A stretch of DNA of 64,000 nucleotides from Bdellovibrionales bacterium (GTDB taxonomy: Bacteria; Bdellovibrionota; Bdellovibrionia; Bdellovibrionales; JAUICD01), in assembly GCA_965203875.1 (NCBI GenBank), contig OZ241914.1, forward strand, positions 553,145 to 617,144, read 5' to 3'. The notes below the pieces were generated by a model. That model searched no databases. It was given only the letters and a program-made list of their open reading frames with translations, and was not told the DNA's origin. The position numbers were made by a program, and so were the translations under genes. This document shows positions 1-63,864 of this stretch, in pieces. Numbering within the stretch: position 1 is the stretch's first letter; every line of letters starts with the position of its first letter.

Positions 1-75
1 GTGGAAAATACCAGATAAAATGTTAATCAACATCAAAGCAACTTATCAAGGTATATTCTGACGGATTGTCTAAAC
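1..75 (+). repeat. Partial, degenerate right (R) module of the hairpin-repeat family at the window edge
   Basis: ...gataaaatgtt...tcaaggtatattctgacggattgtct resembles the R-module variant ...gataaaatgtttaccagctctcaaggtatattccaacagactatct at 50860-50906. It is interrupted and truncated by the window start. Confidence 0.35.
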
Positions 76-2887: not shown

Positions 2888-2895
2888 CTAAGGTT

Positions 2896-3284
2896 AAGGG
2901 TTTTCAATTTTTGATAAACACACATAGCGAAACGGTCCGACCGAAGGTCAAAGTGAAGCTAGTGTGTGTTTATTAAAAATGTTTACCAACGTTCAAGGTA
3001 GACTATAAAAGAACTGCCATAAGGGTTTTCAATTTTTGATAAACACACATAGCGAAACGGTCCGACCGAAGGTCAAAGTGAAGCTAGTGTGTGTTTATTA
3101 AAAATGTTTACCAACGTTCAAGGTAGACTATAAAAGAACTGTCATAAGGGTTTTCAATTTTTGATAAACACACATAGCGAAACGGCCCGACCGAAGGTCA
3201 AAGTGAAGCTAGTGTGTGTTTATTAAAAATGTTTACCAACGTTCAAGGTAGACTATAAAAGAACTGCCATAAGGGTTTTCAATT
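2896..3284 (+). repeat. Tandem array of 3 near-identical 125-bp hairpin-repeat units plus a trailing partial L-module
   Basis: Units start at 2896, 3021 and 3146, and a partial unit at 3271 (aagggttttcaatt). Unit: aagggttttcaatttttgataaacacacatagcgaaacggtccgaccgaaggtcaaagtgaagctagtgtgtgtttattaaaaatgtttaccaacgttcaaggtagactataaaagaactgccat. Only two substitutions separate the copies (3142 and 3186). Internal inverted repeat: ataaacacacatagc / gctagtgtgtgtttat. Confidence 0.95.
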
Positions 3285-3326
3285 AAACTAGCAGCTGGAC
3301 AGGACCACAAGTTTTATGTAAGTTGG

Positions 3327-4169
3327 TTATTGCTCTGACAATAGCATTCCTTTTAGTTTTCGTTCGCTATATTGTCTTTTGACCATGTCGAATATACTAT
3401 CTCCTGATACACCTATTTTTTCATTGCCGTAGATAACACTTAAACCTTTAACATCTGTTTGTTGTTTGGCAACTTTTGCCGTAAAAAAATGAGAAAGGTC
3501 AGGCATTTTAATAGGTTCTATAGTATTATTTGTAAAGGTGTTCGTTTTTAATTTATTTTGTCCTATTGCAGCCATTTTCACTTGGTGTTGTTTGATGCTC
3601 TTTTGATATTGTTTTTTATACTCTAGCTTAACTCTATTTGAGCTTTCTTTCATTTGAGCTTGTAGTGTATCAAAATCTTTAGATGTAAATCCTGCTTGTA
3701 TAAATTTACTTCTGTCTTTAAGTGAATTTACGTTAAGCGACTTGCCTGGTGGGATTGTTATGGTTCCTGCTTTTTGATCAATTGCATACCCTGTATCTTC
3801 TAATTGATCAATAATACTTGAAAGCTGTTCTGAAAGCTTAGGATGTAATTGATTAGGGTTTGATGGTATGCGTGTGCCTGAAAATATTGCTGGCATTTGA
3901 TAGCCATTTGGCTTTATTCCATCTGCTGTTTTAAAAGAGCGTATTGCTTGAGCGGCACTTGAGTATGCCTGTGTGCCATGTGCAACCATTAGTACACAAC
4001 TTAGTTTATTGTAGCTCATACATTTTTTGCCCTGTTTGATTGCTTCTTTTGTGTTAGTGACAGATCCTGCAGCTCCTGCGGCTCCTGTTTTAATAGCAGA
4101 ATCAAACATGTCGCTTGAGTAGGTATGTGCAGAGTATAAGATTATGATTGAAAAAATTATTTTTCTCAA
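3327..4169 (-). CDS. Secreted hypothetical protein
   Basis: 280-aa ORF with an N-terminal signal-like segment MRKIIFSIIILYSAHTYS. It overlaps the upstream ORF by 4 bp (operon). I recognise no family. Confidence 0.5.
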   Translation of the reverse strand: MRKIIFSIIILYSAHTYSSDMFDSAIKTGAAGAAGSVTNTKEAIKQGKKCMSYNKLSCVLMVAHGTQAYSSAAQAIRSFKTADGIKPNGYQMPAIFSGTRIPSNPNQLHPKLSEQLSSIIDQLEDTGYAIDQKAGTITIPPGKSLNVNSLKDRSKFIQAGFTSKDFDTLQAQMKESSNRVKLEYKKQYQKSIKQHQVKMAAIGQNKLKTNTFTNNTIEPIKMPDLSHFFTAKVAKQQTDVKGLSVIYGNEKIGVSGDSIFDMVKRQYSERKLKGMLLSEQ

Positions 4170-5619: not shown

Positions 5620-7926
5620 GTGTTAGGATTAATTAAAGTTCTTAAAAATCTTCTTAAAGATGCTCTTAAAAAAACCATGAGAGTCTTTAGTGTTTTAGCG
5701 TCCACAACCTGTCTGTTAGTCTTGTTTTTCCAAACGTCTGCACATGCCCAACAAGTTGTAGGTACTTACACCGATCCAACCATCAATGATATAAGCCTTG
5801 CTAATAAAGCTGTATCTTCTTGCGGAATTTTAGAAGAAGTAATTACTAAAAATAAAGACACAGCAGATATTCTAGCTTCACAAGCTTTTATAGAACTACA
5901 AAAAATAAAAGATGGAAAACTTTTAATAGATAACAAAACTTGCCAAGAGAGTATTTTAGAATTTGTTAAAAGTTTATGTTCATCTGAATCGCCTACAAAC
6001 AAACTTTATTGTGAAAGATTAGGCATTCAAAAAAGCACCGATACTGAAACAGACGGCTATAAAACATTTGGTCAATCTGCTATTGACGAGCTGGGTATAG
6101 ATTTAGCGGATGACATAGATTTTGAGCTAAACCAAAGCCAGCAAGATCAAAGTAGAATAAAGTTTCTTGCATCAGGAGCATTGTTTTATTTAAGCCCTGT
6201 GAAAAAATTAAGGTTTATTCCTACAGCCACAAGAGCAGTAGCTGCTAGGGTAAAGCCTGTACTTAGCGGAGCTTTATTGGTGTTAGCTACATTGGGATTA
6301 TCTTCTTGTGGTGATGCAGGCGGCATAGCAGAACCACCAGTCATTGTGGATACTCCTTGTACAAGAGAAGAAGATGGATACTTTGAAGCAGGTAGTGAAT
6401 GTATAAAACTTCCCTATGTAAGCTATACTTTTATTACTGAAGATGGCACGGAGTTAGAAGAGAGTGATGGTAGCCCAACCGCTACTATTAAAATTGAATT
6501 TGATTCTAAAATGTTGTTTTTAGGCGATGATGGTAAGTTCTCCGAGCTAACAAAAGGTAATGTTGTAGACATGCTTATTGTTGCACCTATCAGTGGTGGT
6601 AGTGATTTAGCAAGATTAAACGGCCCTATTAGTGAGGATCAAATATCGATCGCAACTACAGCCCAAGAAAAAACAGTAATTATCATAGAGCCGCCCAATT
6701 CTAAAGTTTATCAAGCTGACAGCTATAGGGCGATAGTTACCAATTACGTAAAAGAGGAACATGCAGCAAAAATACATTCAAATAGACTTTTAGCGTACCT
6801 ACAAACAGCACAAAGTTCTGCAGAGTTTTCCATATCTATTAATGAAAGTTTATTGTGCGAAGTTGAGACTGAGACATCTCAAAGTGCAGCATCGCACAAT
6901 CATGAACATATAAATTCAAATGATAATCAAGATGATCATTCTTTTTGTGCGTCACATTTGCTTGATCTTCCACGTCCAAGTGCACAGCCTGGTATTATGA
7001 AACAAGTAGAATATGAAAGGGCTGATCCTAATACTACCTACGTGATTGATGTTGCGTTTATTCTGTCTAGAAGCTACCGCATAGGTACATGGCGATCTCG
7101 TCTTATAGAAGAGATTATTCCTGCTGTGAATGATATTTACCAAAACTCAGGGGTCAATGTTAGATTTAGAGTGGCAGCTGTTAAACCGTCTGCCGATTGT
7201 ACACACTATTCGCCTTGTCAGATGCAGATTGCAGATATTGATGACTTGCCTCCAGAGGCAACAGTTGAGGCTGTTCAGAGAATGACAAAAGGTATGCAAA
7301 GAGACTATGGAGCTGATTTGGTCTACGGGTTAAGTCACTATTCAGGCGGCGGTGGAGGTGGAGGAGTTTGCGGAGTAGCTTATACTAGAGTTAATGGCTT
7401 AACAAAAGATATGGCAAAGGAATATGCGGCTGGTAGTGTAGATTTTAATTGTCAGGGGTTGTTTACTGATAGATCAGAGTCGTTTAAAATTTATTACGTC
7501 ACACAAGTTCTTGCACATGAAATTGGTCATAATCTGGGGTTATTGCACGATAGAGCAAATGACTCTGGTGACAATCAACCATTTTATCCTGGAGGTTATG
7601 GATATAAAGGTGCTGCCTTGATCCAGACAGGTAATTCACCTCCTACTTACGACTATCGTGGAATAGGAACAATAATGTCATATTCACAAAATGACGAATA
7701 CGTTCCTTTCTTTAGTGCTAATAAAGCGGTGAATAGAGATCTGTTATGTGGTGACAGAGATAGATTTGATCATGTACTAGATAATGGATTTTGTCCTGTA
7801 TACCAGGATTATCTGCCAGAAGGAGAACTTATTAGCATAGGTTATGAAGGTGCTAATGCTTCAGAAGCTCTTCTGTACACAATAAAGGATGCTTCCCAGT
7901 TTGTTTGTGAACCTGGCTCCTGCTAA
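5620..7926 (+). CDS. Secreted zinc metalloprotease (metzincin, reprolysin-like HExxHxxGxxHD)
   Basis: VLAHEIGHNLGLLHD (nt 7507-7551) is the extended metzincin zinc-binding motif. Probable start at 5677 (MRVFSVLASTTCLLVLFFQTSAHA signal peptide). Confidence 0.75.
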   Translation: MLGLIKVLKNLLKDALKKTMRVFSVLASTTCLLVLFFQTSAHAQQVVGTYTDPTINDISLANKAVSSCGILEEVITKNKDTADILASQAFIELQKIKDGKLLIDNKTCQESILEFVKSLCSSESPTNKLYCERLGIQKSTDTETDGYKTFGQSAIDELGIDLADDIDFELNQSQQDQSRIKFLASGALFYLSPVKKLRFIPTATRAVAARVKPVLSGALLVLATLGLSSCGDAGGIAEPPVIVDTPCTREEDGYFEAGSECIKLPYVSYTFITEDGTELEESDGSPTATIKIEFDSKMLFLGDDGKFSELTKGNVVDMLIVAPISGGSDLARLNGPISEDQISIATTAQEKTVIIIEPPNSKVYQADSYRAIVTNYVKEEHAAKIHSNRLLAYLQTAQSSAEFSISINESLLCEVETETSQSAASHNHEHINSNDNQDDHSFCASHLLDLPRPSAQPGIMKQVEYERADPNTTYVIDVAFILSRSYRIGTWRSRLIEEIIPAVNDIYQNSGVNVRFRVAAVKPSADCTHYSPCQMQIADIDDLPPEATVEAVQRMTKGMQRDYGADLVYGLSHYSGGGGGGGVCGVAYTRVNGLTKDMAKEYAAGSVDFNCQGLFTDRSESFKIYYVTQVLAHEIGHNLGLLHDRANDSGDNQPFYPGGYGYKGAALIQTGNSPPTYDYRGIGTIMSYSQNDEYVPFFSANKAVNRDLLCGDRDRFDHVLDNGFCPVYQDYLPEGELISIGYEGANASEALLYTIKDASQFVCEPGSC

Positions 7927-8004: not shown

Positions 8005-9110
8005 TTACTGCATGCTGGAGTGCCGCTGACGTTTGAGTTTACTCACTCTTTGCTTAGAAACTCCAACTAATTTAGCAATATCAGACACGCTCACCTTATT
8101 TTTTAACATGTTTAGTATTACTTGTGTCAGACCCCGCTCTATACCCTGCTCTGCTGCTTCTTCAGCCAGCTCTTCTGCATAAGATTTATATTTCATCATA
8201 ACACGTTTCTCCTTGGACACACATTTGCTTTCTAACTTAGCTACTTCATCGTAAACAGCACTGTCATACAATCTAGCACTAGCACTGCATAACAACTCCA
8301 TACCTTCTTTGTACTTACTCAAACTTAACAGCTTACCAGCACGAGTAAACAGCTCTTTCAGCTCAGCTTTTATGCTGTTTTGCTAGTATTGTATAGTACA
8401 CCTTGAACGTTGGGCAACTTTTTCAATAAGTGTACACCTAGCTCCACTTTCGGCCTATAGCCTAATCGTTTCGCTAGTGTACGCTTATCGAAAACGAAGA
8501 TCTTGAATGCGACTGTCAATTTACCTATTAATCTGCAAACATCTAAATTGTGCAAATTTAACAACATATATTGAAAATTCAACACATGCTTTTCTAAAAA
8601 TGAATGCAGCCAACTAGGGTATTCTTTCAAACCCAACTGGTTATGAAATGATAAAGGAACATCCCAACTACGGCTCTTACCATGATACAAAACAACCGGT
8701 ATCACAACATAACCTTCCTTCTTATACTGCTTATATATAGAGGCCATATAAGATAATAGCTGGTAATGTACGTACTTATCTTTACTACTTTTGTGCTCAA
8801 TCAACACAAACACTCTTATTTTAACTTCTTGTAACAACAAACGAAAACACCATGTCTGCTATCGTTTCACCTGACGTGCCTACAAACGTACCAGATTCTA
8901 TTTTGAGACTTTTTTTATTCATCTTTGCAAGAATAGAACTAGGCAAGATTAAGCTCAATAATTCTAAAGCATACTTAGGACTACTCAGAAAAACATCCTA
9001 ACTATCTGATCACTTCTTTTAGTTGATTCTCTTTTTTTAGCTTTATGCTTAACGATAGGTTTGGTTACTTTTGACTTCTTGGTTTTATTTTTTGTCAGTT
9101 TCTTTTTCAT
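8005..9110 (-). pseudogene. Decayed Rpn/YhgA-like (PD-(D/E)XK, transposase_31-type) recombination-promoting nuclease gene
   Basis: Three frame fragments on the minus strand reconstruct one protein. (1) ATG at 9110: MKKKLTKNK...RSDQIVR, then a frameshift. (2) DVFLSSPKYALELLSLILPSSILAKMNKKSLKIESGTFVGTSGETIADMVFSF, then a stop near 8822. (3) VKIRVFVLIEHKSS...VIPVVLYHGKS (the hhhhEHxS core typical of the family), which runs into a repeat unit at 8504-8382. After the repeat comes KAELKELF...AEQGIERGLTQVILNMLKNKVSVSDIAKLVGVSKQRVSKL (typical C-terminal HTH-like tail). Confidence 0.6.
8382..8504 (-). repeat. Hairpin-repeat unit (L-hairpin-R) located inside the Rpn-like coding sequence
   Basis: Minus-strand reading: caagatcttcgttttcgataagcgtacactagcgaaacgattaggctataggccgaaagtggagctaggtgtacacttattgaaaaagttgcccaacgttcaaggtgtactatacaatactagc. 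The tail of ORF 8370..8840 (AKRLGYRPKVELGVHLLKKLPNVQGVLYNTSKTA) is a translation of the repeat. Confidence 0.85.
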
Positions 9111-9275
9111 AAGACTAATCATCCCAACATAACATCACTGATACTTACAAGATAAAAACACTGTTAAAACACAACACTGATAGAAAATACATATGGTAAA
9201 ATATTCCCTGTATTTATTTGAGAAAAATTAACATTTGATGACAGTTTTTACATATAAAATGTTTTCACTATCTTA

Positions 9276-9457
9276 CTTATGACCTTAGGTCGGTCTGTTT
9301 CGCTACGTGTGTTATTAACAAAGAAAACCTTGAGCTGATTCTTTTGTAGTTTACCTTGAACGTTGCACAACTTTTTTAATAAATGCACCCTGGCTTCACT
9401 TTCGGCCTTTGGCCTAATCGTTCCACCAGTGCACATTTATTAAAAACGAAGGGCCTT
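9276..9457 (-). repeat. One full hairpin-repeat unit (9332-9457) followed by a half unit (9276-9331)
   Basis: 9332-9457 is the reverse complement of ...taaggcccttcgtttttaataaatgtgcactggtggaacgattaggccaaaggccgaaagtgaagccagggtgcatttattaaaaaagttgtgcaacgttcaaggtaaactacaaaagaatcagctc. 9276-9331 matches the L-module plus the left half of the hairpin (aaggttttctttgttaataacacacgtagcgaaacagaccgacctaaggtca). Confidence 0.85.
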
Positions 9458-9530
9458 ATTCTAAAGTTCTTGGGCATCCTGGTCGATCTAAACCTACATA
9501 CAGCAACAAAAAACCAGAAAAGTAGGCCCC

Positions 9531-10031
9531 TTGGACACCACACAACAAAACAATATCGATCAAATAACAGAGTTTATTAAAAAATTCGATATAAAGCTAA
9601 AAACAGAAATTTCCGATAAGGGGAACCTAACAATAACACAAACCCTAGACAGTAAATCCATAGTAATAAAAAAAGATGAAATAAAAGACTTACTACAAAG
9701 AAACGACTCCAACGGACAATTCTTCATGCAAGTCAACTTCGAAAGCGGAAAAAGAATCCTACTAACCGATCTACTAATAGGTTTCGAACCCCACCCCATT
9801 GAAGGCCTAGAACCAAACATGCTACCAAAAGTTGTAACTACACAAGACCTACACAACGTGTTCGAAGCACTAGAAAACGTAGTATCAGATGAAACAACAT
9901 CAAAAAACGAAATATCAGCCTTAAAAAAAATATTCGATTCCATCATACAAGGCGGTGAAGCCATAGGGTTTAATTTAAAATCAGAAAAGTGCTGGCCACA
10001 CGGACTGGCATACACAAAAGCTTCAGCCTAA
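9531..10031 (+). CDS. Hypothetical protein (atypical A+C-rich coding strand, TTG start)
   Basis: 166-aa ORF with a protein-like sequence (…FFMQVNFESGKRILLTDLLIGFEPHPIEGLEPNMLPKVVTTQDL…). I recognise no family. Its 3' end converges on pilQ. The equally long antisense ORF is Ser/Cys/Phe-rich and looks spurious. Confidence 0.4.
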   Translation: MDTTQQNNIDQITEFIKKFDIKLKTEISDKGNLTITQTLDSKSIVIKKDEIKDLLQRNDSNGQFFMQVNFESGKRILLTDLLIGFEPHPIEGLEPNMLPKVVTTQDLHNVFEALENVVSDETTSKNEISALKKIFDSIIQGGEAIGFNLKSEKCWPHGLAYTKASA

Positions 10032-28955: not shown

Positions 28956-29743
28956 CTAATAAGTGGGCAAATTAGGTTTCAACAACTTGCGTACTTTGGA
29001 TTTTCTCCCGAAACCAAGTAAACCAAGTGCAAAAGGTGGATTATAATAGTTGTATAAATCGATAGGTATCATATATCTAACATCATCACCAAGGACGCCT
29101 TGCATCTTTATATGTGCTGCTAAAGTAACATCAGCACCATTTTCAACAAATAGTTCAGCCGTTTTCCAATATTCAGACATAGCCATTTTGTGTAGTACTT
29201 TAGTCCGTCCTTAAAAGTAGTATTTACATTACTTCCGTAATCAATCAATAGCTGCATTTTATTAAGCTCTTGTTTGCTTTGACCAGATATTGCCAATGCC
29301 ATTAAAGCAGTAGCACCATCAAAGGATCTTCTTTGATCTAGCAGCACATCAATTTCATCTGACAGATCTATAAAAGTTTGAATGAATTCAAGTGAGATAT
29401 TCTTTCTTGCAGCGTAGTGCAATTTATTTTCACCCCATTTGTTTACTGACTCTATATTCAGACCATTTTTTGTTAATAAAATTAGTGCAGATACACTCTG
29501 TACTATGTGTGCAAGTGTGTTGTGAGAGTTATTAAATTTTGCATTTACATTAGCTCCTTGGTCAATGATATGCTTAATTTGATCTAGATCAGGTTTGCGT
29601 TTATTAACCGCATTAAAAAGTTGTTCATCTAATTTTTCCTGCTTTAACGTTAAGGCTCGAGCACAATCGTAGGATGTTGTACTAGCAGATGCATGTGATA
29701 CACATACTAGGAAAATAAAATAGACACCAAAACTTCTCATCAC
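28956..29743 (-). pseudogene. Secreted ankyrin-repeat protein gene split by a 1-nt frameshift (paralog of 29839..30678)
   Basis: ORFs 29120..29743 and 28956..29186 together align along the full length of the intact paralog. The frame changes near 29208-29216 (…NVNTTFK | GRTKVLHKMAMSEYWKTAELFVENGADV versus the paralog …NAAVKKNRTTALHKAAKYGYLKAAELLIENGASV). Confidence 0.7.
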
Positions 29744-29838: not shown

Positions 29839-30678
29839 CTACCGTACTTTGTCACGATACGGTCTATACTCTGCATTAGAGTTTAATACTCTAGGTAGAG
29901 TAGGCCTCAGCAATGTACGTGCTTTGGAGTTTTTCCTGAAATCCTCAAAATGTGCGTGATACTGATACAAATCTATGGGTAGCACATGTCTAGCTCTATG
30001 ATCAAAGCCAAGCTTTAACTTTGCCATTGCATCAACACTTGCACCATTTTCAATTAATAATTCGGCAGCTTTCAAATATCCGTACTTGGCTGCTTTGTGT
30101 AGTGCTGTTGTTCTATTCTTCTTAACAGCAGCATTTACATCACTTCCGTTATCAATCAACAGCTGCATTTTCTCAAGCTTTTGTTTACTTTCACCAGATG
30201 ATGCTAATACCATCAAAGGAGTAGCACCGTCATAGGTTCTTCTTTGATCTAACAGTGCACCGCTGTCTTCGCTTGAAAGTTCTATGAAAGCTTTAATTAA
30301 TCCAAGTGGGGTATTTCTTTTTTCAGCGTAGTGCAGTCTGTTTTCACCCCCTCTATCTACTGATCCTAAATGTAGGCCATTTTCTGCCAATAGGACTAGT
30401 GTAGACACACCCTTTACTGCATGTGCAAGTGTTTTGCGAGACCGTCCAAACTTTGCATTTACATTAGCTCCCTGACCTATAAGATACTTAATTCGATCTA
30501 GCTTTGGCCTTCGTTTAGTAACTGCACTAAAAAGTTGTTCATCTAATTTTCTTTGTTCCAACATCAAAGCTTGAGTACAAGCGGAGGATGTTGTGCTACC
30601 TGAAACTGAGGTATGTGCACATACCAAAAAGAAAATACAAAATATAACACAATTTTTCACCGCAAAACAGTAACACAT
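29839..30678 (-). CDS. Secreted ankyrin-repeat protein
   Basis: Signal-like N-terminus (VIFCIFFLVCAHTSVSG) and ANK motifs (…TALHKAAKYGYLKAAELLIENGASVD…, GQGANVNA…). It is a tandem paralog of the downstream gene. Confidence 0.8.
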   Translation of the reverse strand: MCYCFAVKNCVIFCIFFLVCAHTSVSGSTTSSACTQALMLEQRKLDEQLFSAVTKRRPKLDRIKYLIGQGANVNAKFGRSRKTLAHAVKGVSTLVLLAENGLHLGSVDRGGENRLHYAEKRNTPLGLIKAFIELSSEDSGALLDQRRTYDGATPLMVLASSGESKQKLEKMQLLIDNGSDVNAAVKKNRTTALHKAAKYGYLKAAELLIENGASVDAMAKLKLGFDHRARHVLPIDLYQYHAHFEDFRKNSKARTLLRPTLPRVLNSNAEYRPYRDKVR

Positions 30679-30774
30679 ATCTTACAAAATGATAAATACT
30701 TTCATGATCAACGTTTGTAAAATGTGAGTAACTTTTTCAATAGATGTAGGTTATGGAAAACTCTAGACTTTGCA

Positions 30775-30902
30775 AAACTTGTTCACCATACGCAACAAAT
30801 CTTAGTGTAAGGCTTTCAAGCCAGTCGTAGACTGGCGTACCTCGGAAAGCCTTACACTAAGATTTGTTGTATTAAAAACTCGATCAAAAATGAATACCCT
30901 TA
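30775..30902 (-). repeat. L-module plus class-B long hairpin immediately 3' of rpoN
   Basis: Minus-strand reading directly after the rpoN TAG: TAAGGGTATTCATTTTTGATcgagtttttaatacaac…. A perfect 25-bp inverted repeat follows (30793-30817 caacaaatcttagtgtaaggctttc / 30845-30869 gaaagccttacactaagatttgttg) enclosing an inner hairpin ccagtc-gta-gactgg. Confidence 0.85.
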
Positions 30903-32351
30903 CTAATAAAACCTCTTCCTTCTCCTGGAAGAAGGTATCCCCAAACGCTCCCTATACTTAGACACAGTCCTTCTGGCTACGTCAATTCCACTGGCTCTTA
31001 ACATAGTCCAGAGCTTAGAATCCGAATAAGGTTTTTTTGGATCTTCATTATCTATAATATTTTTAATCTGTGATTTAACCTTGTTGCTAGCAACAAACTG
31101 ACCGCTATCACTAGATACACCAGAATTAAAAAAATACTTAAGCTCAAAAATACCTCTAGGAGTATGCATGTATTTATTAGTAGTCACTCTAGACACTGTT
31201 GACCCATGCAAACCCACGTCATGAGCTATATCTCTTAAAATCATGGGCCTAATAAAATCCTTACCTTTTTCAAAAAATTCCATCTGATGTTTCACTATGC
31301 TACTAGCCACCTTGTATATAGTTCGCTGCCTCTGATCAATAGAATTTATTAAAAAACGAGCAGACTTCAACCGCTCCCTTATATAATTCTTAGCCTCACT
31401 CTTTGCCAAAGAACTAGAACGAAAAGTCTTTTTATAAAAATTAGAAATTCTTATTCTAGGCACGCCTTCATCATTGAGTGATACGACATAGCCACCTCGT
31501 TGTACTTTATTAACATACACATCAGGAACAACATATTGAGTTTCGTTATTATCAGGTGAAAAAACAAAGCCAGGTTTAGGATCCATATCAAACACTATCT
31601 GACACAGCTCTTTTACATACTCGATGCTAAGTTTCATTTTTTTAGAAATGGTTTTATAATCCCTATTCTCCAAATTAGTTAGATGGTTTTGTACCAACTC
31701 TACCACATCCTTTGTATCTTCTTCCAAATGCTTGGCCTGGATCAAAAGACATTCTTTTAGATTCCTAGCACCTACACCAGGTGGATCAAATTCATGAAGC
31801 AAAACCAGATTTTCCTCTAAAGCCTCTAATTCAATACCCACCTCTTCAGATATTTTTTCAAGTGGAGTTTTTATATAGCCATCGTCCTCTACGTACTCAA
31901 CTAATTTACCTACAACATGAACTTCCTCATCACTGAAGCCGCTAAGCCCAACCTGCCAATTCAAATGATCAGAAAGAGTCCTAGAAGAAGATATTACGTT
32001 TTCATAACTCCTGGCTTCATCCTTGCTATATTTGGTCACGGTTTGATCTGTACCACCTGCACTATCTACATACTTTTCCCAATCGAAGTCGTCTTGATCT
32101 GCTTTTCTTGGATCATCATAAGACTCCAGATCACTTTCCTTAGAATCTCTTAACTCACCACCTTGTAGATCTTCTGCTTGAGTATCTGTTATTTCTTCTA
32201 AAACGGGATTTTCTTCCATCTCCTTTCTTATAGCTATTTCTAATTCAATCCTGGACATTTGCAATAATTTGATCGCCTGCTGAAGTTGAGGGGTAATCCT
32301 CAAAGTTTGTATCTGAGACGTATTCAAAGTCTGTTTAAATTGCTGAGACAT
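30903..32351 (-). CDS. rpoN: RNA polymerase sigma-54 factor
   Basis: N-terminal Gln-rich region I (LNTSQIQTLRITPQLQQAIKLLQMS), an HTH region and the RpoN box ARRTVSKYRE near the C-terminus. Confidence 0.95.
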   Translation of the reverse strand: MSQQFKQTLNTSQIQTLRITPQLQQAIKLLQMSRIELEIAIRKEMEENPVLEEITDTQAEDLQGGELRDSKESDLESYDDPRKADQDDFDWEKYVDSAGGTDQTVTKYSKDEARSYENVISSSRTLSDHLNWQVGLSGFSDEEVHVVGKLVEYVEDDGYIKTPLEKISEEVGIELEALEENLVLLHEFDPPGVGARNLKECLLIQAKHLEEDTKDVVELVQNHLTNLENRDYKTISKKMKLSIEYVKELCQIVFDMDPKPGFVFSPDNNETQYVVPDVYVNKVQRGGYVVSLNDEGVPRIRISNFYKKTFRSSSLAKSEAKNYIRERLKSARFLINSIDQRQRTIYKVASSIVKHQMEFFEKGKDFIRPMILRDIAHDVGLHGSTVSRVTTNKYMHTPRGIFELKYFFNSGVSSDSGQFVASNKVKSQIKNIIDNEDPKKPYSDSKLWTMLRASGIDVARRTVSKYRERLGIPSSRRRKRFY

Positions 32352-41214: not shown

Positions 41215-42513
41215 ATGAATTTTAATCTTAAATATGAATCACCATTTGATTTGAAAGTAACCTCCTCGGTGCCTTCTTCCAAGATAGACAGCATGTTCAA
41301 TGAAATTTACGCTGCTTTAGCACAGAATACTCAAGTTAAAGGCTTTAGAAAAAAGAAAATTCCAATCAATATAATAAAGACCAATTTTTCTAACAGAGCT
41401 AAAATTGAAGTATTCAAAACCTTAACCAACCAAGTTTATGGTCACTTAAGCAGCCAGCGTATAAATATCATTGAACTAACAGACGATCTATCCTCATATA
41501 CCCCTATGCCCGAAGAAGGAAAAGAGTATAAATTTACCCTGTCATTCAAGGTACAACCTATGCCAAAAATAAAAAGTAAAATAACAGGCATGGTACTAGA
41601 TAAACCTAACATCTCAACTATCACTCAAGAGGATATCCAAAGACAAATAGACATCTATAGAAGAGCAGGGAATAGTAAACAAATAGTAGAAAATAGAACA
41701 GTACAAGATTACGATATAATAGTTGCAGACATTTTGGTCGAATTAGATGGTATTTATTCCAAAGTTTTATCTAAAACTCCAGGTGCAATTCATCTAACCA
41801 AACAATCATGCCCACAAGAAATGATTGATGGTTTAATAGGTATGAAACTATCAGAAACCAGAACAATTAACCTCAACCCTAAAAGTGATCCTGACACCTA
41901 CATTGATAGAGTTAAAAGAAAATACACTGTCAAGTTATATAAGATAGTTGAGATTTCTGCATCTCAATTGGACGACAATCTTGCTAAAAAATTTAACTTA
42001 GACACTGTAGCATCTTTAAAAGATCAAGCTAGAAAAATGGTTGAGTTTGAAAATTCTATTATTACTAGGGATAATTTAAAAAAACAAATATGCGATATAT
42101 TACTAAAAGAACAAACTTTCGAAGTAGCTCCAAAGGATGTTGAAGCACAAAAGAATCTACTAAAACTTAATCTAAGTCAGAGTATGCAGATGTATGGAGT
42201 AACAAATAATGAAATAGAAAAACAATTAAAAAATATGGAAAATGAACTAGAAAAAAAGAGTTTAAACAAATGTAGTCTGGAGCTTATTATATCACAAATA
42301 ATAGCAGAGCTTGGAATAACAGTGACTGATCGAGATATAGAAGAACAAATAAGACAGATACATCTTAGAGAGGGTATTCCATTATCAAACCTTAAAAAAA
42401 GATACTCTAACAAGCAGGCCAGGTTTTCTTTGGAATTTTCTATAGCAAAAGAACGAGCCTTTGACCATATAATATCCAATGCTAAATTTAATCAAGATTC
42501 ATCTGGTGTATAA
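41215..42513 (+). CDS. tig: Trigger factor
   Basis: 432 aa. It has the N-terminal ribosome-binding signature VKGFRKKKIPINII (GFRxGxxP-like), a central FKBP-like region and a C-terminal helical arm region. Confidence 0.8.
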   Translation: MNFNLKYESPFDLKVTSSVPSSKIDSMFNEIYAALAQNTQVKGFRKKKIPINIIKTNFSNRAKIEVFKTLTNQVYGHLSSQRINIIELTDDLSSYTPMPEEGKEYKFTLSFKVQPMPKIKSKITGMVLDKPNISTITQEDIQRQIDIYRRAGNSKQIVENRTVQDYDIIVADILVELDGIYSKVLSKTPGAIHLTKQSCPQEMIDGLIGMKLSETRTINLNPKSDPDTYIDRVKRKYTVKLYKIVEISASQLDDNLAKKFNLDTVASLKDQARKMVEFENSIITRDNLKKQICDILLKEQTFEVAPKDVEAQKNLLKLNLSQSMQMYGVTNNEIEKQLKNMENELEKKSLNKCSLELIISQIIAELGITVTDRDIEEQIRQIHLREGIPLSNLKKRYSNKQARFSLEFSIAKERAFDHIISNAKFNQDSSGV

Positions 42514-43642
42514 CGTGACTTCCATTAATTTTGAAAAATTATCTAAATTTGAAATAAAACTAAAGGTTACTTTGTCTAAAAAAGAGCTTACCAGTTCAAA
42601 CAATAAAGGAAAAAAATCTAAAAATTTAAAAAACAACGATTATAAAACAGCTATAGTCAGTAATCTTCAAAAGATTGTGTGTAATGAATTTCTGGTTAAA
42701 AATAATATGGCTCCTACAGGTTTTGCAAAACTTAGATTCAACATAGTAGGTAATAAATGTGATGTGGAGTATACTACAGACGTAAACTTATTAACTCCCA
42801 TAAATAGTATAGAAGGTGTAAATTTAAATATTTCAAATCATGAAATTAATATAACTCAAAATATGATTGATTCTTATCTCTACAGCCTAAAAAGAGAAAG
42901 TGCTAAATATGTAGTTTTAGAAGAAGACCGCAAGGTTATACCTTCTGATCTAGCGTATGTAAAGATAGAAATCTCTGATGATTTCAATTATGATTTTTCA
43001 ATAGCTTTAGATCAGCCTTTTGAGATTATAAACTTACCAAAAGCTATTATTGGCATGCGTGTAGGAGAAACCAAAACTATAAATGATCGCTTACCATCTA
43101 ATCTAAAATATAAACAATATTCTGGTAAAAATGCACAGATAAAAGTAACGGTTAATCGAGTATTGGTAGGGGATATGCCTACTATAGATGATGAATTTAG
43201 TAAAGATGCTGGGTTTGATGATGTTGTTATACTTTTAAGTAATACAATTTCTTATTTGAGATTAAAGCAAGACAGATCCGTAAATGATAAATTAAAAGAA
43301 GAAATATGCGGCCAACTATCAAGCAAATTCCCTGTTGAAATATCAGATAAAGCGATTCAGGATTATAAAGAAATGCTTGAGGAAAAATTAAAAACCGATC
43401 TTGATAAATACAAATGGTCTCAAGATGAGATAGACAATTATATAAAAAATTCTTCTACAACTCTTACGGATCAATCCAGAAAAGAGCTTATGGAGGATAG
43501 TATTTTATCGCAGTTAGCATTGTATTTTAGAAAAAGTCATAATTTTGATTATGATTTTGCTAAACTCATGCCTTTTGATGATTTACAAAAAGAAATTAAG
43601 TATCAGCTCATTAAGCTGATTGTAGAATCACAAAACTCTTAG
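42479..43642 (+). CDS. Trigger-factor-like paralog lacking the GFRxGxxP ribosome-docking motif
   Basis: The likely start is GTG at 42515, 2 nt after the tig stop. The architecture is similar: an FKBP-like segment YVKIEISDD…IIGMRVGETKTINDRLPSNLKYKQYSGKNAQIKVTVNRV and a helical C-terminus. It has no GFR motif. Confidence 0.55.
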   Translation: MLNLIKIHLVYNVTSINFEKLSKFEIKLKVTLSKKELTSSNNKGKKSKNLKNNDYKTAIVSNLQKIVCNEFLVKNNMAPTGFAKLRFNIVGNKCDVEYTTDVNLLTPINSIEGVNLNISNHEINITQNMIDSYLYSLKRESAKYVVLEEDRKVIPSDLAYVKIEISDDFNYDFSIALDQPFEIINLPKAIIGMRVGETKTINDRLPSNLKYKQYSGKNAQIKVTVNRVLVGDMPTIDDEFSKDAGFDDVVILLSNTISYLRLKQDRSVNDKLKEEICGQLSSKFPVEISDKAIQDYKEMLEEKLKTDLDKYKWSQDEIDNYIKNSSTTLTDQSRKELMEDSILSQLALYFRKSHNFDYDFAKLMPFDDLQKEIKYQLIKLIVESQNS

Positions 43643-43750
43643 CAAATCTTTTTGTAGCTTTAAGCCTTGCGGCTTACCGCTTCGCTAATCAAACATTTGA
43701 TAAAATTTAAAGACCTTTAGGCTTTAGTCTGGCCTTGAACATAAATTAGC
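43641..43750 (-). repeat. Shortened hairpin-repeat unit plus a fragment, starting within the final two bases of the tig-like stop codon (43640-43642)
   Basis: aaatctttttgtagctttaagccttgcgg…cgcttcgctaatcaaacatttgataaaatttaaagaccttta is a reverse-oriented unit with a truncated hairpin and an L-module (rc: taaaggtctttaaatttt). It is followed by ggccttgaacat (a fragment of the R-module in reverse complement). Confidence 0.6.
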
Positions 43751-43796: not shown

Positions 43797-44822
43797 ATGG
43801 AAGTTGTTAAGAAAACAGATTGGCTGTTAGTCGTTGTACTGCCTATATTGATTACCTTGGTACCTGACTTATACACTAAATATCATTTCTGTGGTGATTG
43901 CTACAAATTGGATAAACAGATAGAAGACATACCAGAAGATGTAAGTGCAGATGATTTTTTCAAAAACGACTCAAAAACACAAAATATATGTAGCGATAGA
44001 ATTCCAGAAAAAACATATAGCTTTCTTGGCACCAAGTTTGGAATAGAATGTCAAACTAATTCTGGAATAATATTAAGTACATTTTCTGATCTACCTCAGC
44101 TTCAAAAGGTTGTGTCGCTTTCTACTGTAGGTGCTTTGTTAATTTTTATTTTTATCATGATACAAATGTTTTTACCTCACAGAATGCTAGCTTTAAGAGC
44201 TGGTATATCTCTTTTATTAGGTAGCATCTTAGGTAATGTGGCAGACAGGATATTGAATAAAAAAATTACTGACTTTTTGTTCATCCAAGTTAAAATTCCA
44301 TGGGAGGAAGGCTTTAGTTATAAGTTTATATGGAATTTTGCAGATGCTTTCCAGTGGGTAGGCTGTGCAATAATAATTATCTATTTGTTGAAGGGTGGAT
44401 CTATTTTATGGCCTATAGATAATTTGAGAAAGAAATATGTAACAGATAAAGATTATCAATACAAGTATTGTGTAAGGATGATGTTGTTTATAATGGCATT
44501 TGCAATAGTAACTCTTGTATATTCATACACATTTTTAAGTGTTGTATTAGATGATCCAGGATCTATAACTGACAAAAAAGAATTTTTGATCTCGTTTGTT
44601 ATAATACATGCTATATTGAGTATGATATTTATGGGAGCTATGGGGTATATAGGTTTAATTTTATCTCATAGAACTGTTGGACCTTTATTTGCATTGGAAA
44701 GATTTTTGAAAAACTTATTAGCTGGAAAAAGTGATACTTTTGAAACCAGAAAAGGTGATTATATTTTTGGAAAGCTAAAAACTATTGCAGATGATTTTTC
44801 CAAACAGCTGAAAAAACGTTAA
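43797..44822 (+). CDS. lspA: Lipoprotein signal peptidase (SPase II)-like protein with an extra 2-TM + HAMP-like C-terminal extension
   Basis: LspA motifs PDLYTKYH (DxxTK), ECQTNSGIILS (N-x-G-x-x-F/L), GSILGNVADRI…ITDFL (GNxxDR…DF) and IWNFADAFQWVG (FNxAD). The C-terminal ~140 aa add two TMs, then HRTVGPLFALERFLKNLLAGKSDTFETRKGDYIFGKLKTIADDFSKQL, which resembles a HAMP linker. Confidence 0.6.
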   Translation: MEVVKKTDWLLVVVLPILITLVPDLYTKYHFCGDCYKLDKQIEDIPEDVSADDFFKNDSKTQNICSDRIPEKTYSFLGTKFGIECQTNSGIILSTFSDLPQLQKVVSLSTVGALLIFIFIMIQMFLPHRMLALRAGISLLLGSILGNVADRILNKKITDFLFIQVKIPWEEGFSYKFIWNFADAFQWVGCAIIIIYLLKGGSILWPIDNLRKKYVTDKDYQYKYCVRMMLFIMAFAIVTLVYSYTFLSVVLDDPGSITDKKEFLISFVIIHAILSMIFMGAMGYIGLILSHRTVGPLFALERFLKNLLAGKSDTFETRKGDYIFGKLKTIADDFSKQLKKR

Positions 44823-45270
44823 AGGTCTTCAATTTTATTTAAGGCCCTTCGTTTTTAATAAATGTACACTGGCGTAACGATTAGGCCAAAGGCCGAAAGT
44901 GAAGCCAGGATGCATTTATTAAAAAAGTTGTGCAACGTTCAAGGTATATTCCAACAGATTCCCTAAGGCCCTTCGTTTTTAATAAATGTACACTGGCGTA
45001 ACGATTAGGCCAAAGGCCGAAAGTGAAGCCAGGATGCATTTATTAAAAAAGTTGTGCAACGTTCAAGGTATATTCCAACAGATTCCCTAAGGCCCTTCGT
45101 TTTTAATAAGTACATATAGTTAAACGGTCCGGCCGAAGGCCAAAGTGAAGCTAGCTGTTATTTGATAAAATGTTGCCCAACGTTCAAGGTAGACTATAAA
45201 AGAATTGTCGTAAAGGTCTTCGTTTTTAATAAATGTTTACCAGCTCCCAAGGTAGATTATAAAAAAATTT
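44821..45270 (+). repeat. Mixed tandem array of hairpin-repeat units
   Basis: A truncated L-module lies at 44821-44840. Two identical 124-bp units start at 44841 and 44965. A third unit with a different hairpin starts at 45089. A hairpin-less L+R unit lies at 45212-45270. The first TAA of the array is the stop codon of the lspA-like gene (44820-44822). Confidence 0.95.
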
Positions 45271-45306
45271 ACTTTAAGTCTAAAGTTTTCCATTAATAAT
45301 AACAGT

Positions 45307-49792: not shown

Positions 49793-50674
49793 GTGTCTAA
49801 TACTTACCAAGTGTTACACAAGCCAGTCTTATTAAACGAGATTATAAAAAGCCTAAGTGAAATGGATAGGGTCACAAGCATTTTAGACGCTACCTTTGGA
49901 AGAGGTGGTCATTTGGTAGCCATTCACAATGCATTTAGAAAAGCAAAAATAGTAGCTATCGATAGAGACTTAGAGGCCATACAATTTGCAAAGGATAACG
50001 TTTCAAAGTTATTTAACCTTGACAGTATTGAGATTCATCACATGAACTTTTCTAGAGCTTATACCCTAAAAAAAACTTTCGATGCAATTATTGTAGATCT
50101 AGGAGTATGCTCCTCACAACTGGAGAGTGCACATAGAGGATTCAGTTTTAGATTGGATGGGCCACTTGATATGCGGATGAATACCGAGGAAAAGTTATTG
50201 GCTTCACATTTAGTAAATAATTTAAACTATAAACAGCTCTGTGAGTTGTTTATTAAATATGGCCAGGTGACAAGACCACAAAAAGTAGTTAATGCTATTA
50301 TACATCATAGAAAAAATAAAAAAATAGATTCAACTCTTGAGCTTGCAAATATTATTACCACACAAAATAAAAAAACTAAAATGCATCCAGCTACAAACTA
50401 CTTTATGGCATTGAGAATTAAAGTAAATAATGAACTAGATAGTTTATCAGAATCCTTAGATTCTTTAATAGACCAACTACTACCTGGTGGTCGTTTGATG
50501 GTTATATCGTTCCACTCGCTTGAAGATAGAATTATTAAGTTTAATTTTAAAAATAGTAGAGTAGGAAAACAGTTAAATAAAAAAGTGATAAAGCCCAGCC
50601 AGGATGAGATCAAAGATAATCCAAGGTCTAGGAGTGCAAAACTAAGAATTTTTATTAAAGGCCCTTCGTTTTGA
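49793..50674 (+). CDS. rsmH: 16S rRNA (cytosine1402-N4)-methyltransferase RsmH (MraW)
   Basis: HKPVLLNE, DATFGRGGH, VDLGVCSSQL, ISFHSLEDRIIK and NPRSRSAKLR. GTG start. The last 5 codons and the TGA lie inside a repeat L-module. Confidence 0.9.
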   Translation: MSNTYQVLHKPVLLNEIIKSLSEMDRVTSILDATFGRGGHLVAIHNAFRKAKIVAIDRDLEAIQFAKDNVSKLFNLDSIEIHHMNFSRAYTLKKTFDAIIVDLGVCSSQLESAHRGFSFRLDGPLDMRMNTEEKLLASHLVNNLNYKQLCELFIKYGQVTRPQKVVNAIIHHRKNKKIDSTLELANIITTQNKKTKMHPATNYFMALRIKVNNELDSLSESLDSLIDQLLPGGRLMVISFHSLEDRIIKFNFKNSRVGKQLNKKVIKPSQDEIKDNPRSRSAKLRIFIKGPSF

Positions 50675-50998
50675 CAAATGCTTGCTAGTGTAGTGGAAAA
50701 ACCGAAGGTTTTGAAACGGAACTAGGCGAGCATTTGATCAAAACGTTGTGCAACGTTCAAGGTAGACTACGAAAGAATTGCCTAAAGGTCTTCAATTTTG
50801 TCAAATGCAAGCTAGCGTAGTGACAAGACCAGAGGTCTAAACGTAGCTAGGCTTGCATTTGATAAAATGTTTACCAGCTCTCAAGGTATATTCCAACAGA
50901 CTATCTAAAGGTCTTCATTTTTAATAAGTGCACATAGCGAAACGGCAAGGCCGAAGGCCTGAGTATAGTTATGCATGCTTATTAAAAATTGAAAACCT
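50657..50998 (+). repeat. Array of three hairpin-repeat units with three different hairpins, between rsmH and ftsL
   Basis: Units start at 50657, 50784 and 50907. The L-modules (aaaggcccttcgtttt / aaaggtcttcaatttt / aaaggtcttcattttt) and R-modules are conserved, and the hairpins differ. Unit 3 ends with aaaaattgaaaacctc, an inverted copy of an L-module. Confidence 0.9.
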
Positions 50999-62895: not shown

Positions 62896-63267
62896 ATGAA
62901 TAAGCGAAGTTCTGAAGAACTGCTATCATTGGTTAAAAAAAGAAACGATTTATTTGTTAAGTTTAGGAATATTAACGATAGAGAGTTAGATCAGGTCAGA
63001 AGCGGTGACTTTTCAAATTTGAAAGTGTTTTATGATGAAAGATCTGTTTTGTTATCGAGTGTTAGTAAATTAGATTCTAGTATTAGAAGTTTTTCTAAAC
63101 ACCCAGTGGCTAAACCAGTAAAAAATGACGTGCGTGTAAACTTGTTAAATGCGTTGGATAAAAAAGAAGAGTTGGTAAGAGAAATTTTAGAGCAAGATTT
63201 AGAGATTATTCATTTGGTAGATGAGCATCAGCTAAATCTAGAAAACCAACACAGTAAGTCTGCATAA
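62896..63267 (+). CDS. Hypothetical helical protein
   Basis: 123-aa ORF with a strong SD (aaggtgagg) 6 nt upstream of the ATG. Its TAA stop is the first triplet of a solo L-module. Confidence 0.55.
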   Translation: MNKRSSEELLSLVKKRNDLFVKFRNINDRELDQVRSGDFSNLKVFYDERSVLLSSVSKLDSSIRSFSKHPVAKPVKNDVRVNLLNALDKKEELVREILEQDLEIIHLVDEHQLNLENQHSKSA

Positions 63268-63285
63268 GGGTTTTCGATCACATTT
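63265..63285 (+). repeat. Solo L-module of the hairpin-repeat family, on a stop codon
   Basis: TAAGGGTTTTCGATCACATTT versus the array L-module TAAGGGTTTTCAATTTTTGAT (2895-2915). Confidence 0.55.
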
Positions 63286-63297
63286 AAAGATCTAGTT

Positions 63298-63385
63298 TGG
63301 TGCCTCCGGGGAGACTCGAACTCCCAAGGTGATGAACACCGGTGGATTTTGAGTCCACTGCGTCTACCAGTTCCGCCACAGAGGC
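63298..63385 (-). tRNA. tRNA-Leu (anticodon CAA), CCA encoded
   Basis: Reverse complement GCCTCTGTGGCGGAACTGGTAGACGCAGTGGACTCAAAATCCACCGGTGTTCATCACCTTGGGAGTTCGAGTCTCCCCGGAGGCACCA. Acceptor GCCTCTG/CGGAGGC (one G-U pair), anticodon arm GTGGA-CTCAAAA-TCCAC, a long variable arm and T-arm GGGAG-TTCGAGT-CTCCC. Confidence 0.9.
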
Positions 63386-63519: not shown

Positions 63520-63650
63520 TGTTCATCGAAGTTGAACTTACAATGAAGATAGATGTGTGGTTTGTAGAGGCTTTCAAGCTGCCCAAAAGAGCAGCGTACC
63601 CCAGAAAGCCACACACCCATCTTCGTTGTATTGAAAAACAAAGATTAAAA
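63520..63650 (-). repeat. Second class-B long hairpin element
   Basis: It shares with 30793-30869 the core ggctttcaagc-[inner hairpin]-gcgtacc-nnn-gaaagcc and the flank ttgttgtatt[ag]aaaaac. Its outer stem (acaatgaagatagatgtgtgg / ccacacacccatcttcgttgt) and inner hairpin (gctgc…gcagc) have different sequences. Confidence 0.75.
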
Positions 63651-63654
63651 ACTT

Positions 63655-63789
63655 TAGGCCTCAAGAAAATCTTTCGGAATATACCTTGAACGTTGGTGAA
63701 CATTCTATCAAATTCTTGCCTAGTTTAGTTACAAGACCTTCGGTCTTTCCACTACACTAGCAAGCTTTTGATAGAATCAAAGACCCTTA
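63655..63789 (-). repeat. Hairpin-repeat unit (class with ctag…cactac…ctagc hairpin)
   Basis: It is similar to the reverse complement of unit 50784-50906: ggaatataccttgaacgttggtgaacattctatcaaattcttgcctagtttagttacaagaccttcggtctttccactacactagcaagcttttgatagaatcaaagaccctta. Confidence 0.85.
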
Positions 63790-63852: not shown

Positions 63853-63864
63853 GGGGGGGGGGGG
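63853..63864. repeat. Homopolymeric G12 (C12 on the minus strand) tract
   Basis: Counted directly: tta-gggggggggggg-acg. It lies in an ORF-free region. Confidence 0.95.

Follow-up and report, generated by a model that had tools for sequence, protein, structure and literature searches.

Mycobacterial interspersed repetitive units (MIRUs), described by Supply and colleagues in 1997, are said to be direct tandem repeats of tens to ~100 bp in operon gaps, with ends that overlap the flanking stop and start codons; they carry short open reading frames (ORFs) in phase with their neighbours and no long hairpin. Correia (NEMIS) elements of Neisseria, with 26-bp terminal inverted repeats and a TA duplication, and BOX elements of Streptococcus pneumoniae, in which internal modules vary in number and whole units are not repeated, are modular small repeats co-transcribed with neighbouring genes. 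Palindrome-associated elements derived from IS200/IS605, and the REP/RAYT system of repetitive extragenic palindromes (REPs), move by single-strand 'peel and paste' and need a fixed tetra- or pentanucleotide left flank. The REP palindrome bears a conserved 5' tag, GTAG or CGTC (PMC3733652), and many REPs have a stop codon no more than 15-20 nt upstream, a position from which they can affect translation and mRNA stability, according to work cited in PMC12306157. In Coxiella burnetii, QMITE1 and QMITE2 are bounded by terminal inverted repeats, with direct repeats of 2-11 nt on either side, and wherever a QMITE has entered a functional gene the insertion is at the 3' end, where it changes the C-terminus and supplies or adjoins the stop codon (PMC5896051). 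Here we describe a family of hairpin repeats in a 64,000-nt stretch of DNA (the window; positions 553,145 to 617,144 of contig OZ241914.1) from a Bdellovibrionales bacterium. The repeat unit starts with a TAA-initial leader, named the L-module in an earlier interpretation made from the letters alone (hereafter, the sequence-only reading), and this leader lies on or beside the stop codons of several genes. We tentatively favour, at a probability of roughly 45%, the reading that the family is a selfish, non-coding mosaic hairpin repeat, similar to REPs and bacterial interspersed mosaic elements (BIMEs) or to miniature inverted-repeat transposable elements (MITEs), in a deletion-biased genome.

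Anatomy of the repeat and its likeness to described systems

Profile (nhmmer) and covariance-model (CM) searches of the window, with tandem repeats detected by TRF, gave ten arrays or single copies, named Z, A, H, B, C, I, D, E, F and G (Table 1). For comparison we fetched further loci, of which L092, L093, L094 and L095 are from the same species and L001-L003, L026-L028, L096 and L097 from relatives. The unit is modular and 124-126 nt long, with an unpaired 13-nt leader, TAARGGNYTTCRW, as its 5' part, then a ~75-nt hairpin, then an R block with the near-invariant core CAACGTTCAAGGTA; 20 or more units show this order, standing singly or in head-to-tail arrays. The outer arms of the stem-loop are A/T-rich (TTTTTRATAAA and TTTATYAAAAA), and the inner part has copy-variable arm sequence, a symmetric purine internal loop (3x3; GAA/GAA or a variant of it) and, at the apex, a short hairpin whose loop is a C(GNA)G triloop or a GNRA tetraloop. 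The folding energy of a single unit is between -37 and -44 kcal/mol (z = -4.2 to -5.8). The leader has its TAA at the start and a TGA 17 nt further on, and TAA/TGA shut two of the reading frames through the unit within seven codons, the third being shut at the 3' arm in most units. R ends usually have TAA next, which may be a 3-nt duplication or the start of the next leader. A second, long type of hairpin (type 2; GGCTTTC-YGRGGTACGC-stem-loop-CTTGAAAGCC) stands 3' of the leader at two places, 30780-30870 and 63560-63640, both on the minus strand.

Like the REPs and BIMEs of enterobacteria and pseudomonads, the family consists of extragenic, dense, non-coding palindromic repeats in mosaic clusters, with copies that look homogenised within the species and are placed near stops. 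It differs from them in its hairpin, which is ~75 nt long with 25 pairs and internal loops against the 20-40 nt of a REP palindrome, in its head-to-tail units, which alternate in BIMEs, in its unpaired TAA-initial leader and conserved non-palindromic R block, and in lacking the GTAG/CGTC tag, the leader consensus at the hairpin foot being TAARGGNYTTC. No RAYT gene was seen in the ~130 kb examined (genome 1.2-1.6 Mb). As in MIRUs, the tandem units overlap stops, but frames through the unit are mostly closed and the hairpin dominates it. The likeness to QMITEs lies in small palindromic repeats at gene 3' ends in a reduced genome; terminal inverted and flanking repeats, however, are not demonstrable here, and QMITEs are not reported as head-to-tail arrays (PMC5896051). 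The family is short, non-coding, multi-copy and dispersed, as MITEs are, and lacks their terminal inverted repeats, the right end being the non-complementary R block; an apparent inverted leader after the third unit of array E is a partial match to sequence upstream of ftsL in L001 as well. With Correia and BOX elements it shares modularity and presumed co-transcription with the neighbouring genes, and no sequence similarity. A strand-specific irregular hairpin and asymmetric ends, with no terminal inverted repeats and no clear target duplication, recall IS200/IS605-derived elements and REP/RAYT, but the flanks here are unconserved and each unit has a single hairpin where those elements have one at either end; a Y1 transposase did not turn up near the arrays. 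An integron attC-like site was rejected, as the RYYYAAC/GTTRRRY core sites are absent, the neighbours are housekeeping genes (rpoN, rsmH, murU-like) and the window holds no integrase. We file the family as a lineage-restricted one within the intergenic mosaic hairpin repeats, lacking the defining traits of each known system.

Nothing resembling the family came up in Rfam, GTDB representatives or JGI metagenomes. In an Rfam covariance-model scan a tRNA was the sole match at gathering score, and the arrays, with both hairpin types, gave nothing at E <= 1. The R block gave no match as a 28-mer (IUPAC) against GTDB genomes and none as a looser 21-base pattern against JGI metagenomes, and 22 metagenome matches to a leader...R pattern were judged by nhmmer to be chance only. 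A reading of the R block as a sigma-70 promoter was also dropped, since TTTACC-N16-TATAAA occurs in one R subtype only, the invariant part is the core given above, and a promoter scan of array A was empty.

Leaders at stop codons in the window and in relatives

The sequence-only reading had listed five cases of a leader on or beside the stop codon of a co-oriented gene, and all five read as it described. ORF 62896..63267 ends gca TAA (63265-63267), this TAA being the first triplet of TAAGGGTTTTCGAT, and ORF 43797..44822 ends cgt TAA AGGTCTTCAATTTT. The TAG (30905-30903) of rpoN (30903..32351, minus strand), whose product has three sigma-54 domains (Pfam), is directly followed by TAAGGGTATTCATTTTTGAT, giving an in-frame tandem stop with the TAA of the leader. 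The rsmH frame (49793..50674) reads att aaa ggc cct tcg ttt TGA (TGA at 50672-50674), six codons into the leader, and the TAA (2885-2887) of a murU-like gene (NTP_transferase) is followed by c, TAAGGT and TAAGGGTTTTC. A weaker case proposed at pilD, TAA-GGTCAATGCC, has nothing in common with the leader past TAAGGTC and was not counted. The gene at 43797..44822 had been called lspA-like; its product does carry a Peptidase_A8 domain, centrally placed (residues 69-198), but has 341 aa, about twice the length of signal peptidase II, with long extensions at both termini that are kept in a relative (76% identity), and LspA-domain protein fits better.

These junctions concern arrays A, C, D, E and F, and five further window arrays, absent from the earlier list, do not follow the pattern. 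The statement that every internal unit junction reads TAA(A)GG stands for 12 junctions but fails at B1|B2 (TCAAGG), copy H (TCAAGA) and unit K2 of an array outside the window (CCAAGG). Most copies adjoin no upstream ORF. Four arrays lie in divergent promoter gaps (B and G in the window, J and K outside it), and among those in same-strand gaps or within genes three are co-oriented (C, E and H) and four antisense (I and the arrays in L001, L096 and L097).

For the statistics of placement, arrays were collapsed and placed uniformly over non-coding DNA plus 18-nt gene tails, in both orientations. Exact abutment or a shared TAA is found at three of nine window arrays (P = 4.8e-5), and a leader within -18 to +10 nt of a stop at five of nine (P = 2.2e-3); these window tests are post hoc because the hypothesis arose from the same window. 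The evidence from arrays outside the window is modest, with exact junctions at two of seven (P = 1.4e-3, or P = 0.05 without the orthologue of ORF 62896..63267), and over all 16 arrays five are exact (P ~2e-7). Leaders are thus found at stops more often than under uniform placement, and orientation is unbiased in same-strand gaps. The leader-stop association is real but partial, and it is not a general rule. Coincidence in a repeat-rich window is very improbable: the hypothesis was indeed formed on this window, and native gaps are so tiny that any insertion falls near a stop, yet exact junctions appear again outside it, in L096 and L002, and the overall P value stands against chance.

Among the 12 array starts with their own TAA, seven have a stop triplet (TAA, TAG or TGA) ending 0-4 nt upstream, against ~30% expected from composition (binomial P ~0.04); such near-upstream triplets include those at window positions 2885, 9461 and 63791, at 16651 of L092 and at 3586 of L097. 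Unannotated short ORFs may precede some of the arrays; one such ORF, 9456..9563 (minus strand), has the TAA of the leader as its stop.

A near-identical strain (ENA ERZ25067941 contig_1, 1.24 Mb) is 99.6% identical to the window over 11.1 kb; on this contig of 1,239,795 bp, window position w falls at about 343,583 - w. In ~50 kb of further species DNA (L092 beyond the window, L094, L095 and the near-identical L093) we found only two more arrays, J and K, bringing the species to 12 arrays in ~115 kb, without a consistent ORF. RpoN relatives in GTDB are metagenome-assembled genomes (MAGs) labelled Bdellovibrionales with 52-55% identity, one of them a 1.82-Mb chromosome. Among the related MAGs are ERZ25067264, ERZ25070167 and ERR13605529. 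Two related metagenome genomes, with an RsmH 66-68% identical to that of the window, contain diverged members of the family; the leader core TAAAGGTCTTC is the same in these relatives, and one hairpin core, GGCGTAACGATTGCACGAAGTGCAAGTGAAGCCAG, is homologous (CM E = 1e-5). The family was not seen in the 17.6 kb of L003, nor in L026-L028, which are more distant. In L001 the rsmH-ftsL gap was rejected as an empty site, because it holds diverged family members in the opposite orientation.

The relatives also indicate where the junctions lie with respect to the ancestral gene ends. ORF 62896..63267 (123 aa) is a real conserved gene, and because four orthologues end at the same residue (...A*) its leader TAA stands at the ancestral stop. 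The L096 orthologue ends gcc-TAA-AGGTCTTCC, followed by two diverged units, and the L097 orthologue ends TAG with no element, L097 being the closer relative of L096 (81-89% protein identity). The rpoN leader begins exactly after the ancestral stop, since RpoN here has the same length as in L026 and L027. A gene in L002 ends TAG|TAAAGGTCTTCG (the CM match is clipped by the contig end), and its orthologue in L001 has a TAA stop, an empty 48-nt gap and equal protein length. The LspA-domain protein, by comparison, is 6-7 residues shorter than its 76%-identical L003 orthologue, and the tail of RsmH is encoded by the leader (RIF-IKGPSF* against RIF-EKNI* and RIF-EKCLTGTSI* in relatives); some junctions therefore lie inside former coding tails. 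At another rpoN, in L026 (a Bdellovibrionales MAG with RpoN 55% identical), an unrelated 125-nt palindrome (7420-7547; 25-nt arms, GGACTGTCGAAAAGGTATCATCTAC) starts on the TAA and occurs once in the 13 kb fetched.

Compaction, aimed insertion and RNA function as candidate explanations

Of the explanations offered in the sequence-only reading (a TAA/TAAGG target, backup stops and a 3'-end RNA module), none is established, and that reading is supported in part. The reading that we favour, that of a selfish repeat in a compacting genome, would work as follows. The element would spread among loci and amplify locally into head-to-tail arrays, and spacer DNA would then be lost until a functional boundary is reached. 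Insertions in the last dispensable C-terminal codons would be tolerated and would persist, since in two of the three frames the leader brings a stop within seven codons. The survivors would end up flush with the stop on the 3' side, and on the 5' side either ~50-80 nt from a start or at the ribosome-binding site of the next gene. With a TAA at its start and a TGA 17 nt on, the leader can come to lie next to a stop (TAG|TAA), share its TAA with the gene, or take the place of the stop where the junction falls within the ORF tail.

Copying between loci is seen in units B1 and D1, which are 93% identical at a distance of 35 kb, in copy H inside a pseudogene, and in the presence and absence of the element at one stop (L002 and L001). 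Local amplification is evident from the 98-100% identical units within arrays A and D and the five tandem units in L092, and arrays D and E mix unit subtypes. Decay by deletion has left a hairpin-less unit, R-less units (E3 and I), stubs that retain 6-20 nt of leader, and terminal units with internal deletions (3270-3297 and F). Coding sequence takes up 88% of the window, with a median same-strand gap of 7 nt, overlaps in 15 of 38, and a median convergent gap of 33 nt; arrays make up ~2.0 kb of its 7.9 kb of non-coding DNA (26%). They fill gaps from both sides, reaching stops at 0-7 nt, the ribosome-binding region of ftsL at ~20 nt, a tRNA at 3 nt and a convergent stop at ~10 nt, and the leaders that face gene starts (B, I and J) halt 51-80 nt short, leaving space for a promoter and leader.

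No common sequence is present in the 5' flanks of 16 array starts. The flanks of the nine arrays away from stops end GAA, GAT, GCC, AAC, GTA, AAT, TAT or CAT, that is, neither TAA nor TAG, and a fixed left-flank target of the IS200/IS605 kind was rejected on the unconserved flanks. The empty sites, in which the sequence-only reading had proposed to look for TA or TAAGG target duplications, read TAG-TAC, TAA-AAT, TAA-AAT and TAG-TTC, and none reads TAAGG. Excising 3n+2 nt at copy H restores the YhgA-like frame, with a Pfam match spanning the junction, and comparison with an intact homologue (P0126, 75% identical) indicates that 6-7 codons (~18-21 nt) of the target are gone and nothing is duplicated, the host gene being a decayed pseudogene. 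The idea that TAA is a target duplication was likewise rejected, as it leaves the TAG|TAA junctions unexplained and finds no duplication at copy H. The compact genome, the flushness on two sides and the absence of any visible conserved flank, target motif or duplication together lead us to favour the selfish-repeat reading; we infer that the flushness comes from deletion and selection rather than from aimed insertion, and the stop-codon association most likely reflects compaction and tolerance.

Several observations weigh against this reading. The exact junctions are striking, with five or six separate ones at 0 nt or with a shared TAA (rpoN, 43797..44822, 62896..63267, the L096 orthologue and the L002 gene), and in L026 an unrelated palindrome too sits on the rpoN TAA. 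The L002 element stands exactly after TAG, while its close relative L001 has the empty 48-nt gap, and the contrast between L096 and L097 means that one nucleotide position was hit twice independently or that the element was lost precisely. Of all the modules the leader is the best conserved across genomes, and every remnant keeps it, although a deletion process blind to the leader would not be expected to spare it. There was no sign of a mobilising enzyme, an intermediate or a recent insertion, and the whole basis is ~130 kb of one species and ~50 kb of relatives.

Some of these observations suit an aimed insertion, that is, integration that prefers the nucleotide next to a stop codon or the first position of a leader already in place, so that copies would be flush from the outset and arrays would grow by repeated hits. 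This is possible, although we regard it as improbable on balance. It would account for the exact TAG|TAA(A)GG at two unrelated genes in two genomes, for the equal protein length at the empty L001 site, for the leader on the same stop in the window and L096 and not in the closer relative of the latter, and for the exact-abutment statistics. Subtype-mosaic arrays (D and J) and leader stubs stacked at array edges (TAAGGT|TAAGGG, TAAAGCC|TAAAGG and TAAGATTC|TAAAGTTTTTAAT|TAAAGG) suggest repeated insertion into leaders. A DNA enzyme, however, is blind to the reading frame, and a TAA target alone is unspecific for stops because TAA is abundant in DNA of 35% G+C. The nine non-stop flanks without TAA or TAG, the empty sites without a TAAGG-like target, and copy H, with a target deletion in place of a duplication, speak against it as well. 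Some positional preference at insertion may nevertheless exist, judging from the leader stubs and the L002/L001 difference.

The repeat could instead be of use to the host. In this account, which we consider unlikely, leader and hairpin, transcribed together with the upstream gene, would form a 3'-end RNA module that blocks exonucleases, is processed, or slows the ribosome as it terminates, and selection would keep a constant 12-15 nt between stop and hairpin. Conservation of the hairpin structure and its strand asymmetry speak for this: compensatory double changes occur in 17 of the 25 stem pairs (14 distinct units compared), G.U pairs outnumber A.C mismatches 24 to 4 across units, and the leader-to-R strand gives the better fold in 13 of 14 units. 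The C(GNA)G triloops, GNRA tetraloops and 3x3 purine internal loop are consistent with a structure kept as RNA, as is the leader core AAGGTCTTC, which is kept in three genomes although their housekeeping proteins share only 66-69% identity. Counted from the first base of the stop, the hairpin base is at 12 nt where the TAA is shared and at 15 nt where the junction reads TAG|TAA, which falls in the range at which REPs of E. coli bring ribosomes to a halt (up to 15 nt from a stop, according to work cited in PMC12306157). On the other hand, an element copied via one DNA strand would be expected to show the same strand asymmetry, orientation is unbiased in same-strand gaps (three co-oriented against four antisense), and in the four divergent promoter gaps no upstream ORF reads into the array. 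Rfam has no match, and a scan of arrays A, D and E for an intrinsic terminator (short G+C-rich stem, loop of 3-8 nt, T run) found none. Array E places three hairpins between rsmH and ftsL, ~20 nt from the ftsL start, so efficient termination is unlikely in this essential operon, and with it the terminator version of the RNA module.

A related proposal, rather more doubtful, is that the leader (its core AAGGTCTTC) is a clade-conserved gene-end signal for a trans-acting factor, which would either direct integration to stops or act on the mRNA with a terminating ribosome 12-15 nt upstream of the hairpin. Such a signal would explain the recurrence of exact junctions at independent and orthologous stops, the way in which the leader outlives other modules, and its conservation between genomes. 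That the element is retained as a supplier of backup stops, its TAA and TGA halting read-through, is the least credible account. The leader does provide the working stop of 43797..44822 and 62896..63267 (TAA) and of rsmH (TGA), and the tandem TAG-TAA after rpoN is in frame, but any AT-rich sequence would do equally well, AT-rich spacers already giving stops every few codons; one frame has no stop for 27-45 codons, as in copy H, and there is no ORF ahead of most copies. A backup-stop role is at best a side effect.

The family alters or provides the final codons of housekeeping genes (those for RsmH and the LspA-domain protein), and it does so in an uncultured, compact, ankyrin-rich Bdellovibrionales-like genome in which repeats make up about a quarter of the non-coding DNA of the window. 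Annotation of such genomes should expect element-encoded C-termini and spurious small ORFs in arrays, two of which are in public gene sets, and the arrays are natural copy-number markers and likely recombination points. Should the exact junctions arise at insertion or by selection, the family would offer a tractable small repeat coupled to translation stops.

Array census and neighbouring features

Table 1. Arrays and copies of the hairpin repeat in the window (window coordinates) and in further DNA of the species (J and K).
Feature	Position	Strand	Description
Array Z	1-70	+	3' part of a unit (hairpin-arm end and R block), then TAAACTA; truncated by the window edge; nhmmer match 16-69; direct-repeat family D8
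Array A	2889-3297	+	After the murU-like stop TAA (2885-2887) and c, 6-nt stub TAAGGT at 2889-2894
Array A, units	2895-3269	+	Three 125-nt units, 98-100% identical; TRF period 125, 3.1 copies; CM 87 bits each
Array A, end	3270 to ~3297	+	Decayed unit; ~30 nt to the stop of a convergent gene at 3327
Copy H	8379-8506	-	Single unit inside a YhgA-like (Transposase_31) pseudogene; leader TCAAGATCTTCG; nhmmer E = 4e-21, CM 93 bits
Array B	9255-9458	-	B1 (93% identical to D1) and half unit B2 with leader TCAAGG; divergent gap; leader 73 nt from the start of plus-strand gene 9531..10031
Array C	30760-30902	-	rpoN stop TAG (30905-30903), leader TAAGGGTATTCATTTTTGAT, type-2 hairpin, decayed leader-like tail; ~80 nt to the start of the next gene; fold -51.8 kcal/mol, z = -6.3
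Copy I	43632-43718	-	Leader and hairpin without R block; antisense to both flanking plus-strand genes; CM 47 bits, E = 6e-8; far end overlaps, in reverse orientation, the TAG stop (43640-43642) of gene 42479..43642; leader 80 nt upstream of the start at 43797, with stub TAAAGCC in front
Array D	44820-45297	+	20-nt leader stub, its first triplet being the stop TAA of 43797..44822; then two identical 124-nt units (D1 = D2), a third of another subtype, a hairpin-less unit (45211-45273) and a decayed leader; end ~10 nt from a convergent stop at 45307
Array E	50656-50997	+	Three units, the third without R; CM 79-96 bits; rsmH stop inside the first leader; end ~20 nt before the ftsL ATG (51009)
Copy F	63265-63295	+	Leader TAAGGGTTTTCGAT, then hairpin-arm scraps CACAT...CTAG; 3 nt before tRNA-Leu (63298-63385, minus strand)
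Array G	63560-63789	-	Full unit (63789 to 63665), leader-like TAAAGTTTTTAATC, type-2 hairpin; divergent gap with tRNA-Leu on one side and a plus-strand gene ~420 nt away on the other
Array J	L092		Five tandem units of mixed subtypes; divergent gap; leader 51 nt from the start of a secretin gene
Array K			Divergent gap; leader of unit K2 reads CCAAGG

A bias of the arrays towards one replication strand was considered and rejected: five arrays are on the plus strand and five on the minus strand of the window, and the GC skew tracks the gene strand and shows neither origin nor terminus.

Near array G, a homopolymer of 11 G (63853-63863) counts only 8 G in L092, the 99.6%-identical strain; the tract is prone to slippage and is part of the divergent gap in front of a plus-strand gene just beyond the window. 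Within the array, the apical part of the type-2 hairpin (63568-63585) holds 6 of the 39 strain differences found in the 11.1 kb compared, all within 18 nt, a patch that looks like gene conversion. The YhgA-like / Rpn (Transposase_31) gene that carries copy H (8005-9122, minus strand) is split into at least four frames, and at least five intact YhgA-like paralogues (353-364 aa) are present in the loci fetched from the species, one of them ~180 nt from array K. Convergent on array A, a 280-aa ORF (3327-4169, minus strand) has a weak match to the RnlA toxin (RNase LS; E = 0.002), below the Pfam cut-off. Two ankyrin-repeat paralogues stand in tandem at 29120-29743 and 29839-30678 (minus strand) with 75-81% DNA identity, and more ankyrin genes are found just beyond the window, at 12383-14190 of L092, which suggests a host-associated lifestyle. 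In L002, a long heptamer-like tandem run (TGCCTGA / TTGCCCGA) follows rsmH at 2130-2301 and continues up to the contig end.

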